Origin: Hyphomicrobiales bacterium
GTDB taxonomy: Bacteria; Pseudomonadota; Alphaproteobacteria; Rhizobiales; Aestuariivirgaceae
Length of the DNA stretch: 64,000 nucleotides
Reading direction: 5' to 3'
Assembly (NCBI GenBank): GCA_031423845.1
Contig: JANPGD010000054.1
Location: forward strand, 1,058-65,057
The notes below the pieces were generated by a model. The model saw nothing but the letters and a program-made list of their open reading frames with translations. It was not told where the DNA came from and ran no database searches. Below, in pieces: positions 56,531 through 62,484 of this stretch. Within the stretch, counting starts at the first letter, position 1, and every line of letters begins with the position of its first letter. The translations under genes were made by a program, and so were the position numbers.

Positions 56531-57067
56531 AATGACGAGCAGCGGAATGGGCAGGCCAAGCAATGTGCCTTTATATACCGGCGCGTAAATATCTTTCAGC
56601 GCAGGGCTGATAGAGATTGAACCCCCATTGGCCAGATAAGTGAACAGCGAACGCATAATCACTATGGTGCCCAGCGTGGCTATGAACGGTTCAATTTTTC
56701 CGACCGTGATGATAAACTCGTTTGCTAAACCACAAAGGCCCCCCACCGCAATGGCCAAACCTATGGCCAAAGCGATAGTGCCCACTCCGGCGTCAGCCTC
56801 TTGTGACTTTAAAAATAGCAGCATCACACCCGCTGTGAATGCCGCCATGGAGCCCACTGAAAGATCCAACCCACCTGCCGCCATAACAAACGTTGCGCCT
56901 ATTGCAATGATTGCAATGAACGATGTGCGCGTGGCAACATTTTGAATGAGATTATCGAACGTCAAAAAATTAGGGTGTACGAAACTGCCCAGCAAGATGA
57001 GAGCGATCAGCGCAATGAACGGAGCTGCACCGCGAACGTCAAAGTTTTTGAAATCGAATAAAGGCAT
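56531..57067 (-). pseudogene. Truncated RbsC-type sugar ABC permease
   Basis: GGLDLSVGS and PFIATLG present; similarity stops at LGLPIPLLVIL (about 180 aa), so the C-terminal part is absent. Confidence 0.8.
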
Positions 57068-58599
57068 TAGGCAGCGTCCTTATGTGTGCCGGTGGCCAGC
57101 ATCACGATTTTATTTTCGGTAATGTTTTTACCCGTCACTTCGCCGACAATGGCACCGTTACGCATGACGATGATACGGTGGCAAAGCCCAATAAGCTCCG
57201 GCATTTCAGAAGAGATCACCACCACCGCTTTTCCAGCTTTGGCGAGGCCTGATATGAATTCATAAATCTGTTTCTTCGCGCCAATATCCACACCGCGTGT
57301 TGGCTCATCAACCACGACAACGTCTGGGTTCAGCAACATCATTTTAGCCAGCAATAATTTTTGCTGGTTGCCGCCAGAAAGTTGGCCAGCGTCCATTTTT
57401 CGAGACTTGGCGCGAATATCAAACTCTTCAAATGCAGCATCTAAAGCTTTCGCCTCTCGGCTTGTATCCATCAAAAATCCAGCTGTGAAACTCTCGGCAG
57501 TGGCCAGTGTGAGATTGTTGGTCAGCGGAGAAGCCAACAGCAGACCTTTGCCTTTGCGATCCTCAGTGACATAGGCAATGCCCTCATCCATCGCTTGTCT
57601 GGGAGTTTTGAAATCCACTGCTTTACCATTCTTAAGCACGCGTCCTTTGCCAAAGCGCAAACCCAAAACGCCCTCAAGTAATTCTGTGCGGCCAGCACCA
57701 ATCAGACACGCAAATCCTAATATCTCACCCTTCGCTACCGAGAAACTGGCATGATGCACAAATCCTGGAACTGAGAAATCTTCGACCTGTAAGGCAGGGG
57801 CTCTATCATGCTGCGTGGGCTTTGCAGGGTAGAGTTCTCCCATCTCTCGGCCTACTATCAGATTGGCCATTTGCGCGGGCGTGAGATCATTCGTGCTAAA
57901 GGTGCCAACCGATTTTCCATCGCGCAGAATGCTCACGCGGTCTGAAATGCGTTTCACTTCGTCCAATTTGTGAGAGATATAAATAACCCCACAACCTTGT
58001 TGTTTAAGACGGGCAATCACTCCGAACAGAGCCTCACTTTCCACTGGGGTTAAAGTGGCTGTGGGTTCATCAAAAATGACGAAGTGATGTTCACCAGAAA
58101 GAGCGCGTGCAATTTGCACCAACTGGCGATTGGCAATTGATAAGTCCTCCACCCGCGCTGTGGGGCTGGCCAAGCAGTCTAACTCTGCAAGCGCCGTGGC
58201 GGTTTGCGCATTCATCTTCACGTCATCCACCAGCAGCCCACGGCGCAACTCGCGCCCTAGAAAAATATTTTGCGCCACAGTTAAATGCGATGCCAACAAG
58301 ATTTCCTGATGCACCAAAACGATGCCCGCTTTTTCGGCTTCCTTTGGAGAAGCAAATTTAACATCCGTCTTCGCCAAATTAAGTTGGCCTTGCGTGGCGG
58401 TGAGATAATCACCAAGTATTTTCATCAATGTGGATTTGCCAGCACCATTCTCACCAATAATGGCGTGAACCTCGCCGCGCCTGAAATCCAAACTCACATC
58501 ATGCAGCACGGTGTTGCCCGCAAAAACCATGCGCGCATTGCTCACTGCAAATCGGTTTTCATCTCGTTGCTGAGTCTGGTTCACGAACGTCCCATTCAT
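57067..58599 (-). CDS. RbsA-type sugar ABC ATPase (two NBDs), possibly decaying
   Basis: GENGAGKS, DEPT, EDRKGKG, LSGGNQQK. Confidence 0.88.
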   Translation of the reverse strand: MNGTFVNQTQQRDENRFAVSNARMVFAGNTVLHDVSLDFRRGEVHAIIGENGAGKSTLMKILGDYLTATQGQLNLAKTDVKFASPKEAEKAGIVLVHQEILLASHLTVAQNIFLGRELRRGLLVDDVKMNAQTATALAELDCLASPTARVEDLSIANRQLVQIARALSGEHHFVIFDEPTATLTPVESEALFGVIARLKQQGCGVIYISHKLDEVKRISDRVSILRDGKSVGTFSTNDLTPAQMANLIVGREMGELYPAKPTQHDRAPALQVEDFSVPGFVHHASFSVAKGEILGFACLIGAGRTELLEGVLGLRFGKGRVLKNGKAVDFKTPRQAMDEGIAYVTEDRKGKGLLLASPLTNNLTLATAESFTAGFLMDTSREAKALDAAFEEFDIRAKSRKMDAGQLSGGNQQKLLLAKMMLLNPDVVVVDEPTRGVDIGAKKQIYEFISGLAKAGKAVVVISSEMPELIGLCHRIIVMRNGAIVGEVTGKNITENKIVMLATGTHKDAA

Positions 58600-58763: not shown

Positions 58764-59801
58764 TCATGCCACTTTTTTGAGCAATCCACGATTGATAATG
58801 CATTCGGCAATTTGCACGGTGTTCAATGCGGCACCTTTGCGCAGGTTGTCCGACACCACCCACAAGTTCAAACCATTCTCAATCGTTGAATCTTCACGGA
58901 TGCGGCTGATGAATGTGGCGTAATCGCCAGCGCATTCGACAGGTGTAATGTATCCACCTTCTTCGCGCTTGTCGATCACCATGCAACCCGGTGCTTCACG
59001 CAGAATATCGCGTGCCTCATCGGCAGTGATGGGTGATTCAAATTCGATGTTCACAGCTTCCGAATGGCCAACGAACACCGGCACGCGCACGCAAGTGGCT
59101 GTCACTTTGATTTTTGGATCGAGAATTTTCTTGGTCTCAACAACCATTTTCCACTCTTCTTTGGTATCGCCAGAATCCAAGAACACATCAATTTGTGGAA
59201 TCACGTTAAACGCAATCTGCTTAGTGAATTTCCTCGGCGTCGGGTGGTCATTCACAAATATACCTTTGGTTTGAATCCAAAGTTCATCCATGCCTTCCTT
59301 ACCCGCACCTGAAACCGACTGGTAAGTGGCAACCACCACACGCTTGATCTTGGCCACATCATGCAAAGGCTTTAGCGCCACAACCAGCTGTGCTGTAGAG
59401 CAATTCGGGTTGGCGATAATGTTGCGCCTAGTATTGCGCTTCATATACTCTTCCAGCGCGTGAGCATTCACTTCCGGAACGATCAACGGCACTTCTTGGT
59501 CATAACGCCAGCATGAGGAGTTATCGATCACGATAGGCCCCAGCGCACCAATTTTCGGTGACCAGATTTTTGAAATTTCAGAACCAGCTGACATCAAAAC
59601 GAAATCAACTTTTGAGAAATCAAATTGCTCAAGGTCCTTGCACTTTAAAATCTTGTCGCCAAAGCTCACTTCCATGCCAATTGAACGGCGCGAAGCAATG
59701 GCAAAGCATTCATCCACCGGGAATTCCCGCTCGGACAGAATGTTCAACATTTCACGGCCCACATTTCCGGTGGCGCCTACGACTGCAACTTTATAACCCA
59801 T
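58764..59801 (-). CDS. asd: Aspartate-semialdehyde dehydrogenase
   Basis: GATGNVG, ANPNCST, YQSVSGAG, RVPVFVGH, DNLRKGAA; start moved to 59801. Confidence 0.97.
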   Translation of the reverse strand: MGYKVAVVGATGNVGREMLNILSEREFPVDECFAIASRRSIGMEVSFGDKILKCKDLEQFDFSKVDFVLMSAGSEISKIWSPKIGALGPIVIDNSSCWRYDQEVPLIVPEVNAHALEEYMKRNTRRNIIANPNCSTAQLVVALKPLHDVAKIKRVVVATYQSVSGAGKEGMDELWIQTKGIFVNDHPTPRKFTKQIAFNVIPQIDVFLDSGDTKEEWKMVVETKKILDPKIKVTATCVRVPVFVGHSEAVNIEFESPITADEARDILREAPGCMVIDKREEGGYITPVECAGDYATFISRIREDSTIENGLNLWVVSDNLRKGAALNTVQIAECIINRGLLKKVA

Positions 59802-59907
59802 CAGACTTCTTCCTTTTTCCGGTCCGCCCCCAAGAGCCAAGGCTCCATCATCGGTCCAATCTATCGACCATCCACCCCCGCGGGGGTGATTGACCGGGGG
59901 AGGGGCC

Positions 59908-60003
59908 TTAGGCCGTTTTTGTGGTGTGTTTGGCAGTGGTCGAGCAGAAACGCGCTGCGCTGGCAGCGGTGGATTTGCGTTTTATGGTCAAAGTCCTGCT
60001 CAT
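59908..60003 (-). CDS. Putative asd leader peptide (31 aa, Thr/Lys-rich)
   Basis: MSRTLTIKRKSTAASAARFCSTTAKHTTKTA*; 8 Thr, 4 Lys; too short for the ORF track. Confidence 0.7.
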   Translation of the reverse strand: MSRTLTIKRKSTAASAARFCSTTAKHTTKTA

Positions 60004-60011
60004 AGAGCGGG

Positions 60012-60039
60012 CTTCTAGCATTTTCAGCCCTCAAGTCAA
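60012..60039 (-). promoter_or_regulatory. Sigma70-like promoter for the asd leader
   Basis: TTGACT-N16-TAGAAG ending 8 nt before the leader ATG; no Shine-Dalgarno. Confidence 0.55.
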
Positions 60040-60115
60040 TCGAGGCCTAACAAAGGGGTTGGCAGTCGTGCACGGCTTCGCTAATGAACGCCCACGACCG
60101 AATTTTACACTTCGC

Positions 60116-60208
<93 letters not shown>

Positions 60209-60649
60209 ATTCCTGCGATATGCATAATAGTTCTGGCGCTATCATGAACCGTGCAAACCGCTAGCCAATTGCGCCTGCGTCCTTTGCCAATGAAGTCCAG
60301 TCTAGATGACCGCGAAAACATATTTTTCTGCGCACAAGTTTTGTTGCGCGCCTATGATGGATGGGAACGACAATCCCAATAAAACAATATGTTTGCAGGC
60401 ATCGTGTGCACTGGGTGTGCAGTAAGGGAAGGCTTTTTCCGTGAACCGAAGTGAATTAATCTTGAAAACGGTCAGTCCCATTCTCCAAGCCATTGCGATT
60501 TGAATTTCAAAAAGTACCTTATCTCTCAGTCCATTAAACCGGCAGCAATCCCTATATGAAACAAGTCAGTGGGGCGAAACCACATCCGCACTTCAATCTA
60601 CCCCAGTTTTTTCCAAGGGCTTGGGAAATAAGTGTGGTCTATCGACAAC

Positions 60650-61684
60650 TTACCTATATCTAATCTGATTCCATCTATGTCCGAGCAGTGAGAGAATAAT
60701 TATAAGGCCGTTGAAGAACTGGACATAGAAGCCGCTGAGCCCCGCGCCCACAATGCCTGTTTGAATGAATGAGACAGTCAGAGCACCAATAGCACCGCCG
60801 AGTACGGTTCCAATGCCGCCCCAAGTTGGGGTGCCGCCCACGAATACTGAGGCCAAAACTGGCAACAAATAACCGTCTCCCGATGTAGGCCACCAGGTGA
60901 AGTTGATCATGGTCGAAAATACACCGGCAATGGCTGCCCCAATGCCCACAAAGATGAAAGCTCCAATGCGTACGCGATTGACGTTGATGCCCATTTGAGC
61001 TGCGCTATCTGGATTATCGCCAACGATGTGGATATGCACCCCGAAGCGATGCCTCGTATAAAGGAACATAGAGAATATGGTGAAGGCAATGGCCCAGTAG
61101 ATCTGCACAGGAACGCCGTAGAGTTCTGATGAAAACAGCTGGAACACCCAACTGTCGCTCAGCGATGGCAGTGAAATAGACTTCCCCTCAGTGAAGATCA
61201 AGATAATGCCACGAAGCACAAAGTTCATTCCCAGTGTGGCAATGAGCGATGACAAATTGCCCTTAACCACCAAGGCACCAACGAACCAGCCAAGAATTGC
61301 GCCTGTGACCAAAGCGGCAGCAAAGCCGATGATGGGGTCATAGCCAGCCTGAACCACAAGCGCAAATGCCCATGCGGCACATCCCATCGTGGCGGGGAAG
61401 GACAAATCGATCTCTCCCACCGTGACGATAAATACGAGAGGAACAGTCAAAAAAATTGCAACGGGAAGTGTTGTCAAAACTGACGCATAAAGCGTCCAAT
61501 TGGTGAATACGACGGGGTTGGCAATAGTGAACATCAACAACATTGCCAAAAAAACAGCGAGCGAACCCAAGGCGGCGCGATTGGTCAGCAGGAATCGGCG
61601 CAAGGGCTGGTCAGAAGGATGGCTCCACGTTTCAGCTGATGCAGCACTCGTCGAAGATTGCTCTGGTGATAGCTGTTCCATCAA
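60650..61684 (-). CDS. Sugar ABC permease
   Basis: GEIDLSF, IATLG, GDN..SA..MGINV, VFVGGT..GG.G. Confidence 0.92.
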   Translation of the reverse strand: MMEQLSPEQSSTSAASAETWSHPSDQPLRRFLLTNRAALGSLAVFLAMLLMFTIANPVVFTNWTLYASVLTTLPVAIFLTVPLVFIVTVGEIDLSFPATMGCAAWAFALVVQAGYDPIIGFAAALVTGAILGWFVGALVVKGNLSSLIATLGMNFVLRGIILIFTEGKSISLPSLSDSWVFQLFSSELYGVPVQIYWAIAFTIFSMFLYTRHRFGVHIHIVGDNPDSAAQMGINVNRVRIGAFIFVGIGAAIAGVFSTMINFTWWPTSGDGYLLPVLASVFVGGTPTWGGIGTVLGGAIGALTVSFIQTGIVGAGLSGFYVQFFNGLIIILSLLGHRWNQIRYR

Positions 61685-62484
61685 AGTTTTCCCGTCTTCC
61701 GTTTTAGTGTTGGTTCATCGGCCTTTTGGTCTCTGGGTTCCGGGTGGGCAATCTGTTCCATGAAGCGGATGAGTTCCTCAGCTGTTTTGACTTTGTCTCG
61801 GGAAATTTGCATCGCAACCTTGCCGCGATCCATAACCACAAATCGATCCGCAATGTCGTAGACGTGATGAATGTTGTGGCCGATAAAAAGAATTGATCTT
61901 CCACTGGCACGCACTTGGCGCACGAAATGAAAAACCTTGGCAGTTTCGGTAAGAGAGAGAGCTGTTGTTGGCTCATCAAGGATGATCAAATCTGCCTGTT
62001 TGTAAATGGCCCGGGCAATGGCAACGCCTTGCCTTTCACCGCCGGAAAGTTGGCCGACAATGGAATTGGGTGTGAAAACTTTCGAAGTAAAGCCTATCTC
62101 ACGCATCAACCGGCTGGCTTCGGCGATTTCATGTTTCAAGTTGAGAAAGCCCAATCGGTTGCCCTGCTCATTGCCCATGAAAATATTGCGGACAATGGAT
62201 TGCTGCACCGCCAGCGCCCTGTCCTGGAAAACAGTTTCAATGCCAGCATCGCGCGAACGAGCCGCATTCCATCTAGTCACGGGCTTGCCACGAACAAGTA
62301 TTTCACCATCAGTGGGTTTTACAGCACCAGCGAGAATTTTGATCAGGGTTGATTTGCCTGCGCCATTGTCGCCGAGCAATCCAACAACCTCGCCTTTGTC
62401 CACATGCAAATTCACGCCACCTAAGGCGTAAACATTGCCGTAGGATTTTCTTATATTTTTTAGTTCAATCAATCTTTCTGCCAT
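61681..62484 (-). CDS. Sugar ABC ATPase (single NBD)
   Basis: GDNGAGKS, LSGGERQ, DEPTTAL. Confidence 0.93.
   Translation of the reverse strand: MAERLIELKNIRKSYGNVYALGGVNLHVDKGEVVGLLGDNGAGKSTLIKILAGAVKPTDGEILVRGKPVTRWNAARSRDAGIETVFQDRALAVQQSIVRNIFMGNEQGNRLGFLNLKHEIAEASRLMREIGFTSKVFTPNSIVGQLSGGERQGVAIARAIYKQADLIILDEPTTALSLTETAKVFHFVRQVRASGRSILFIGHNIHHVYDIADRFVVMDRGKVAMQISRDKVKTAEELIRFMEQIAHPEPRDQKADEPTLKRKTGKL

Follow-up and report, generated by a model that had tools for sequence, protein, structure and literature searches.

Does the short open reading frame (ORF) rich in Thr and Lys codons that precedes the asd gene of a Hyphomicrobiales bacterium (Aestuariivirgaceae) control this gene, and if so, by which read-out? 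The locus lies in a stretch of 64,000 nucleotides of contig JANPGD010000054.1 (GenBank assembly GCA_031423845.1, positions 1,058 to 65,057), which was analysed as a whole and is called the window here. All coordinates of the leader element and of asd refer to its minus strand. Asd is the last enzyme common to the synthesis of lysine, threonine, methionine, isoleucine and diaminopimelate, and to our knowledge the regulation of asd in Alphaproteobacteria is essentially undescribed. Comparison with related genomes argues that the element very probably regulates asd in response to Thr/Lys charging. On the reading that we favour, a translating ribosome would sense the charging of Thr- and Lys-tRNA and so control asd, most readily through a Rho-dependent read-out; we give this reading a probability of roughly 0.4. 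Stalling, the identity of the ON state and the involvement of Rho are the parts of this reading that we infer.

The leader ORF (59908..60003) comprises 31 codons and a stop, and its translation is MSRTLTIKRKSTAASAARFCSTTAKHTTKTA. It is located in the 5′ untranslated region (UTR) of asd, on the same strand as asd, with its ATG at 60003 and its TAA stop codon at 59910-59908. The ORF contains 8 Thr codons, among which ACT, ACC, ACA and ACG are all present, and 4 Lys codons. Its 3′ end is a putative regulatory codon tract, the final ten sense codons TTAKHTTKTA (59911..59940), which hold 5 Thr and 2 Lys. A C- and G-rich spacer of 106 nt separates the leader stop from the asd ATG (59801). The asd gene itself (58764..59801) was identified as aspartate-semialdehyde dehydrogenase by the NCBIfam models PRK14874 (500.9 bits, E 1.6e-150) and TIGR01296 (443 bits), both of which exceeded the cut-off, and its Shine-Dalgarno (SD) sequence AAGGAAG (59809..59815) is preceded by an A-rich linker. 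Upstream of the leader, a -35-like hexamer TTGACT (60034..60039) and, 16 nt past it, a -10-like hexamer TAGAAG (60012..60017) were read from the sequence. A first-pass annotation of the window had reported this promoter-like pair, the ORF with its SD-less ATG, the Thr and Lys counts and the spacer length, together with the hairpins CACCCC/GGGGUG, GGUC/GACC and GAGC/GCUC and the closing pair CCGGUC/GACCGG; the hairpins and the closing pair are all present, and the other features were recovered at the same positions.

A covariance model trained on 69 leader/spacer regions upstream of asd matched 61 of the 77 named asd loci of the Aestuariivirga clade. Most relatives have a short ORF upstream of asd whose stop codon abuts a C-rich strand. 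These leaders vary from 10 to ~40 codons and their N-terminal parts are unrelated among relatives. Their ends are alike: among 69 distinct leader tails, counted back from the stop, Lys was found at -3 in 59 and Thr at -2 in 60, position -1 was mostly Ala or Val (46/69), and positions -4 to -7 consisted of 70-81% Thr plus Lys. Over all tails Thr was encoded by ACC (110), ACG (80), ACA (27) and ACT (26). As all four Thr codons are in use, selection acts on the peptide or the meaning of the codons and not on the bases.

The Lys codons behaved differently. AAA outnumbered AAG by 174 to 19 in the leaders (90% AAA), against 273 to 1312 (17% AAA) in the asd coding sequences (CDS) of the same loci. 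AAA is the commoner Lys codon in the window's own genome too (64% in long ORFs), and the AAA bias of the leader is therefore visible only across relatives. This genome contains two tRNA-Lys genes, one with anticodon UUU and one with CUU, and AAA is decoded only by tRNA-Lys(UUU). A bias towards the codon of a single isoacceptor would be expected for a sensor of charging. The claim of the first-pass annotation that a Thr/Lys leader stands before asd is thus borne out as a real and conserved feature, by the 61 of 77 loci, the position-specific tail and the conservation at codon level.

The arrangement of the start signals makes it probable that translation of the window leader begins at, or very near, the 5′ end of the transcript. 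Its ATG begins just 8 nt beyond the -10 hexamer, so that the transcript is probably leaderless, which would explain the missing SD. Of 72 leader loci scanned, 57 had a promoter pair TTGAC-N16-19-TA(G/C)AAN upstream. In 23 of these 57 promoter-bearing relatives the -10 hexamer was followed by the leader start at a distance of 6-11 nt, an arrangement that implies a leaderless or nearly leaderless transcript. At most of the other promoter-bearing loci the leader started 24-30 nt after the -10 hexamer, with an SD-like GGCAGG or AAGG readable by eye. A generic sigma-70 scan did not score the -10 hexamer TAGAAG; the assignment is backed by conservation and not by consensus.

To see how far the element extends beyond this clade, the model was run on 151 genomes drawn evenly from the order. 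It matched four families, in 4/4 genomes of f1, 4/4 of f8, 1/2 of f4 and 1/4 of f16. The element is not universal, as many families in a 120-genome survey of the order lacked such a leader. The window's own genome was matched once. No other short ORF in it with a Thr/Lys-rich tail was convincing when at least 6 Thr/Lys were required in the last 8 codons, a filter on which the asd leader itself scores 5.

A member of the same family has been seen before. In Sinorhizobium meliloti 2011, the 39-residue small ORF SEP5 lies in the asd 5′UTR between SM2011_c04408 and c04410, ends in ARKTTAKTTTKTV and carries a 3′-end cluster of six Thr and three Lys; Ribo-seq data and Western blots of a tagged fusion both showed that it is translated (Hadjeras et al. 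2023, Microlife, PMC10117765). The authors termed SEP5 a possible leader peptide, stated that it is "conserved only in Sinorhizobium", and did not study its regulation (PMC10117765). A search of the order with SEP5 DNA found three genomes of one genus, in which the leader ends in KAKTTTKTV followed by the stop and lies 111-112 nt before asd. On this Sinorhizobium-like genus our covariance model gave weak matches at the leader/spacer position (E ~0.01).

SEP5 and the window leader are both short ORFs directly upstream of asd with a 3′ cluster of Thr and Lys codons. The tails AKTTTKTV (SEP5), AKHTTKTA (window) and KRTKTV (relatives) have Lys-Thr-x-stop in common, and in both types a spacer of ~110 nt opens with a pyrimidine-rich strand. 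They differ in that SEP5 has its own SD and 39 codons, whereas the window leader has 31 codons and is probably leaderless. Moreover, the strand after the stop pairs with a purine-rich tract of the ribosome-binding site (RBS) in the Sinorhizobium-like genus, whereas its partners in the window lie upstream of the SD. From these likenesses we assign the window element to the SEP5 family, with translation of the leader here judged from start signals and codon conservation; the family spans several families of the Hyphomicrobiales, far more widely than the single genus to which the paper confined it. Together, the comparative data and the published translation of SEP5 strongly support the sensing half of the earlier interpretation. 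The first-pass annotation could not say whether the element had been described. It is indeed absent from Rfam, and yet SEP5 had already been named a possible leader peptide (PMC10117765). Literature searches on an asd leader element returned nothing beyond SEP5; the "aSD" of a 2026 uRBS paper proved to be the anti-Shine-Dalgarno sequence and not asd.

The spacer contains two C-rich and two G-rich strands. The first, R1 (59896..59907, GGCCCCUCCCCC), is C-rich, immediately follows the stop codon and is complementary to both R3 and R5. Next comes the long hairpin P2 (59866..59895), formed by the C-rich strand R2 (GGUCAAUCACCCC) and the G-rich strand R3 (GGGGUGGAUGGUC). The small hairpin P3, GGUC...GACC (59853..59869), overlaps the 3′ end of P2 with its 5′ arm; relatives show it to be weak and variable, and the covariance model omits it. 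P4, the hairpin GGAGC-CUUG-GCUCU (59833..59846), showed the strongest covariation of the element. The last strand, R5 (59819..59831, GGGGGCGGACCGG), is G-rich, ends 3 nt short of the SD and pairs with R1 in most nested minimum free energy (MFE) folds.

The stability of the fold is not unusual (MFE -40.1 kcal/mol, z = +0.26 against dinucleotide shuffles), and the fold alone is no evidence, because C-runs and G-runs pair in any order. Covariation was therefore assessed for nested R1:R5, P2 and P4 on a model-guided alignment of 82 distinct sequences. Paired cells made up 82.6%, against 75.8% in shuffles, and the covariation score was 0.306, against 0.192 in shuffles (0/500 reached 0.306) and at most 0.127 when the partners were slid. 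In the P2 helices (helices 2 and 3) 80-92% of the cells were paired, with compensatory changes present, and P4 (helix 4) had the most double changes, up to 28 per pair; as the alignment was fitted to the structure under test, these pair counts lean towards that structure. With a score above both shuffled and slid controls, the spacer proves to be a structure that is conserved and covaries across the asd upstream regions of relatives. The consensus that RNAalifold computed from the complete MAFFT alignment was uninformative, owing to slippage of the C- and G-runs in register; the model-guided alignment and alignment-free duplex tests took its place.

In the alignment-free test, the duplex energy of a strand with its own partner was compared with that for partners from other genomes. 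Cognate against non-cognate energies were -6.1 and -2.6 kcal/mol for P4 (z -16), -18.4 and -15.7 kcal/mol for R1:R3 (z -11.5), -16.8 and -14.8 kcal/mol for R2:R5 (z -7.6) and -18.4 and -16.4 kcal/mol for R2:R3 (z -7.4), all z-scores being inflated by relatedness. R1:R5 showed the weakest co-evolution (-14.0 and -13.5 kcal/mol, z -2.7). In one subgroup R2 is CGCUCU and R5 is AGAGCG, in place of CCCCCG and CGGGGG elsewhere, which amounts to three compensated pairs. When transcripts were cut after R3, R1:R3 (-17.4 kcal/mol) and P2 (-16.0 kcal/mol) were nearly isoenergetic. On these data the spacer appears to be a switch: R1 and R2 vie for pairing with R3, and the displaced R2 pairs with R5. R1:R3 and R2:R5 together would make an H-type pseudoknot with plausible loop lengths. 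Two further pairings or functions were considered and rejected: pairing of R1 with the SD, seen by eye, is not conserved across subgroups, and programmed frameshifting, suggested by A-runs before the pseudoknot, was dropped as the slippery heptamer is out of frame and not general.

A ribosome could operate such a switch as follows. With a transcription start only a few bases upstream of the leader ATG, a ribosome would translate the 31-codon leader, where it would either stall on the Lys and Thr codons before the stop or reach the stop and cover the first bases of R1. Its position would decide which C-rich strand, R1 or R2, captures R3 as it emerges. With Lys(-3) or Thr(-2) in the A site, a ribosome unwinds RNA only to about the stop codon and covers ~4-5 nt beyond it; once the stop codon itself occupies the A site, ~7-10 nt of R1 are covered. 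By this geometry a stall would leave R1 free for R3 and termination would block R1, as in the logic of the trp leader. The first-pass annotation had supposed that the stalled ribosome covers the C-rich strand; a ribosome held at these codons would probably reach only ~1-5 nt past the stop, which argues against that step, whereas about half of the strand would lie under a ribosome that terminates. During a stall, R1:R3 would form and R2 would later pair with R5, with every C-rich strand hidden and the codon tract lying under the ribosome. During termination, R1 would be blocked as R3 emerges and P2 (R2:R3) would form; after release, the A/C-rich codon tract and R1 would be naked. When Thr and Lys are plentiful, this naked C-rich, G-poor tract round the stop might serve as a loading site for Rho in the style of the tna operon.

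The preference for Rho comes from the other read-outs in this lineage. A terminator scan of 59600-60500 found none in the spacer, in agreement with the first-pass annotation, which saw no U-tract there; the sole site lies inside the leader ORF (59968-59953). No stem with a U-tract was seen when the spacers of the aligned relatives were read. RBS occlusion, which the first-pass annotation had offered as one outcome of completed translation, did not appear in the models, where the opening energy was the same in every state for this lineage. Opening the asd RBS (-16 to +5) cost 6.38 kcal/mol when nothing was masked and 6.53 kcal/mol when the first 15 nt were, rising in 13 and falling in 16 of 72 sequences. 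Four modelled states (free; P2 formed; P2 formed with R1 masked; all four strands engaged) all gave 7.2-7.3 kcal/mol for asd -16 to +12. With R5 free or sequestered the values were 7.26 and 7.24 kcal/mol (18 up and 20 down of 82). The mean unpaired probability of the SD GG was 0.40-0.54, and masking of R1 added at most 0.10 at the SD and at most 0.16 at R5. Modelled in this way, with nested secondary structure only, the asd RBS of the Aestuariivirga-type lineage is indifferent to the switch. With neither an intrinsic terminator nor RBS occlusion in this lineage, premature termination dependent on Rho is favoured.

Rho loading, the other outcome offered by the first-pass annotation, is compatible with the composition of the tract. 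In the window, the 63 nt around the leader stop contain 48% C, 16% G and 18 YC dimers. The mean of the relatives for the same tract was 39% C, 21% G and 15.5 YC dimers, against 8.8 ± 2.9 in asd. About 2% of the windows taken in the asd CDS reached the relatives' mean C-G skew, and the tract of the window is above that mean, although G-rich partners are nearby and the skew is partly codon-derived. A rho gene is present in the genome (690 bits).

Several points count against this reading. The excess of C over G is partly a by-product of the ACN and AAA codons and of the C-rich helix strands, and therefore cannot be counted as separate evidence of a rut site. Third positions of Thr codons do not avoid G: ACG makes up 33% in leaders and 27% in asd. 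With G-rich partners lying near the C-rich strands, the time for Rho loading would be short. The cognate/non-cognate z-scores are inflated because the sequences are related, although their ranking is still informative, and nested folding cannot score the R1:R3 plus R2:R5 pseudoknot but returns a junction closed by R1:R5. Finally, the Sinorhizobium-like genus differs: there the strand downstream of the stop finds its partner in the purine-rich RBS tract that holds the SD, and masking this strand cut the modelled RBS opening from 7.0 to ~4-5 kcal/mol, which points to a translational read-out in that genus, perhaps the ancestral one.

Put in its most specific form, the favoured reading describes a terminator-less two-amino-acid attenuator, in which the ribosome at the last Lys/Thr codons would pick between a hairpin and an H-type pseudoknot (R1:R3 plus R2:R5) that hides all C-rich strands from Rho. 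It would be a starvation-sensing counterpart of tna, conserved at asd in several families of the Hyphomicrobiales. In such detail the proposal is tentative and less likely than not to hold.

The same sensor with a translational read-out is the rival that survives best, unlikely for this lineage but to be taken seriously. A helix of R1 (or R2) with R5, ending 3-10 nt before the SD, would hinder 30S binding or remove a standby site, and a ribosome at the leader end would keep R5 single-stranded and raise asd translation, as in ermC and secM-secA. R5 adjoins the RBS in every family. Both in family f25 and in the Sinorhizobium-like genus, the pyrimidine strand downstream of the stop has the SD tract itself as its partner. 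The RBS opening cost also dropped with masking in two or three other families, not in all, and the reduction in some families was 1-3 kcal/mol. In our models, masking R1 lifted the unpaired probability of R5 and the SD GG by 0.1-0.16. Set against this, RBS opening in the Aestuariivirga type was unchanged whether R1 was masked or R5 freed or sequestered, and R1:R5 is the least co-evolved pairing (z -2.7). By the geometry given above, a ribosome stalled at Lys(-3) or Thr(-2) would also hardly reach R1.

An improbable variant keeps the sensor and moves the read-out to mRNA stability or processing. Either the 5′ end and the A-rich codon tract would lie under the stalled ribosome, or the junction closed by R1:R5 would be a substrate of RNase III or RNase E, so that the half-life of asd mRNA would depend on leader translation. 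In the short-leader relatives, the leaderless ORF of 10-12 codons has roughly the length of one ribosome footprint, and a ribosome stalled on it would therefore shield the 5′ end; in some leader-less relatives a 5′-terminal hairpin takes the place of the leader, and neither a terminator nor RBS occlusion is evident. Yet no conserved cleavage motif was identified, and this variant leaves the co-evolving competition of R1, R2 and R3 unexplained.

A reading in which the product of the ORF is a small protein with its own role, or in which translation of the ORF has no regulatory effect on asd, is very improbable; the spacer would then be a structured 5′UTR and nothing more. SEP5 is detectable as a tagged protein (PMC10117765), and leader peptides of S. 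meliloti with functions in trans exist (peTrpL, cited in PMC10117765). In contrast, only the last 3-7 residues are conserved among leaders of 10 to ~40 codons with unrelated N-terminal parts, the stop codon always abuts R1, the linkage to asd is constant, and the residues of the tail are end products of the pathway. A classical thrL-type attenuator with an intrinsic terminator can practically be set aside, since despite a leader peptide with regulatory codons and mutually exclusive helices no stem with a U-tract lies between leader stop and asd in the window or was seen in the aligned relatives, a G-run follows P4, and Rfam Thr_leader did not match even at E <= 10.

Like thrL, the thr operon leader of enterobacteria (RF00506), and like trpL, hisL and pheL, the favoured sensor has a leader rich in codons for end products, competing helices downstream and possibly a pause hairpin within the leader; as in pheL, the regulatory codons are close to the stop. 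Unlike thrL and the classical attenuators, it lacks an intrinsic terminator and an Rfam match, and the two C-rich and two G-rich strands make the alternative to P2 a pseudoknot. It also differs from thrL in carrying Thr and Lys codons instead of Thr and Ile, and in preceding asd instead of thrABC. Rfam cmscan at E <= 10 returned only the neighbouring tRNA and chance hits on the tRNA, and nothing on the 5′UTR. Leader-peptide control that depends on Rho is known from tnaC-tnaA of Escherichia coli and mgtL-mgtA of Salmonella. In the window, as in these, a tract that is C-rich and G-poor by composition directly adjoins the leader stop; its exposure would depend on where the ribosome stands, and there is no intrinsic terminator. 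In contrast to tnaC, the stall would come from uncharged tRNA and not from a ligand-arrested peptide, and the dependence on Rho is putative; in contrast to both, the C-rich strands have dedicated G-rich partners. A stall near the end of the upstream ORF would remodel a helix near the next RBS, as in ermC, cat and secM-secA, but in this lineage the SD is outside the helix and its modelled accessibility is unchanged.

The element represents leader-peptide attenuation in a form that lacks a terminator, and its family has been mentioned once in the literature. That mention is one sentence, which treats the element as genus-specific, and the comparative data extend it to several families. If the favoured reading is true, the few known ribosome-mediated attenuators would gain a new design: a conserved leader that responds to two end products at once and needs no intrinsic terminator. 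Cultivable relatives with the same kind of leader, such as Sinorhizobium, make the element directly testable.

The element was missing from 15 of the 77 named loci of the Aestuariivirga clade, and it appears to have been lost or gained repeatedly inside the genus. Three loci of the same genus (L005, L008 and L037) have the same TTGAC...CTAGAA promoter straight before asd, in the 60 nt upstream of the gene, a UTR of ~20-25 nt, and neither leader nor structured spacer. Four others (L034, L062, L072 and L073) carry, instead of the Thr/Lys leader, a single GC-rich hairpin with a U-run in the last 70 nt before asd, just ahead of the SD and near the predicted 5′ end, which could be a 5′ stabiliser or a different attenuator. 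Compared with L026, an internal deletion in L019 and L086 removes the Thr/Lys codons, the stop, R1, R2 and R3 and leaves the leader start, P3, P4 and R5, a decayed copy of the element. One congeneric genome has a second match, to the spacer and the first bases of asd, on another contig (G007:C9:202754-202895); an asd paralogue preceded by another copy of the element may lie there. At L151 and L143, from other families of the order and with no Thr/Lys leader, a hairpin with a U-run lies in the last 60 nt before asd, directly ahead of the SD, which suggests a different control element of asd.

The site picked up by the terminator scan within the leader ORF is the hairpin CGCUGC-CAGC-GCAGCG (59953..59968), followed by CGUUUCUGCU and scored as terminator-like. 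It may be an RNA polymerase pause site that synchronises the ribosome with the polymerase. Relatives with long leaders have hairpins of other sequence at the equivalent position, which would account for the Ala-rich middle parts of those leaders. When the folds of the long leaders were tested for such a pause hairpin, their z-scores were not significant overall (mean -0.49).

Upstream of the leader, a divergent tRNA-Ser(CGA) gene is located at 60116-60205. Genes of a sugar-type ABC transporter flank asd and this tRNA gene (57067-58599 and 60650-62484, minus strand): an ATP-binding protein gene lies downstream of asd on the same strand, 165 nt apart, and a permease gene and another ORF lie upstream. 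A tRNA-Ser gene adjoining asd was seen again, by eye, in several relatives.

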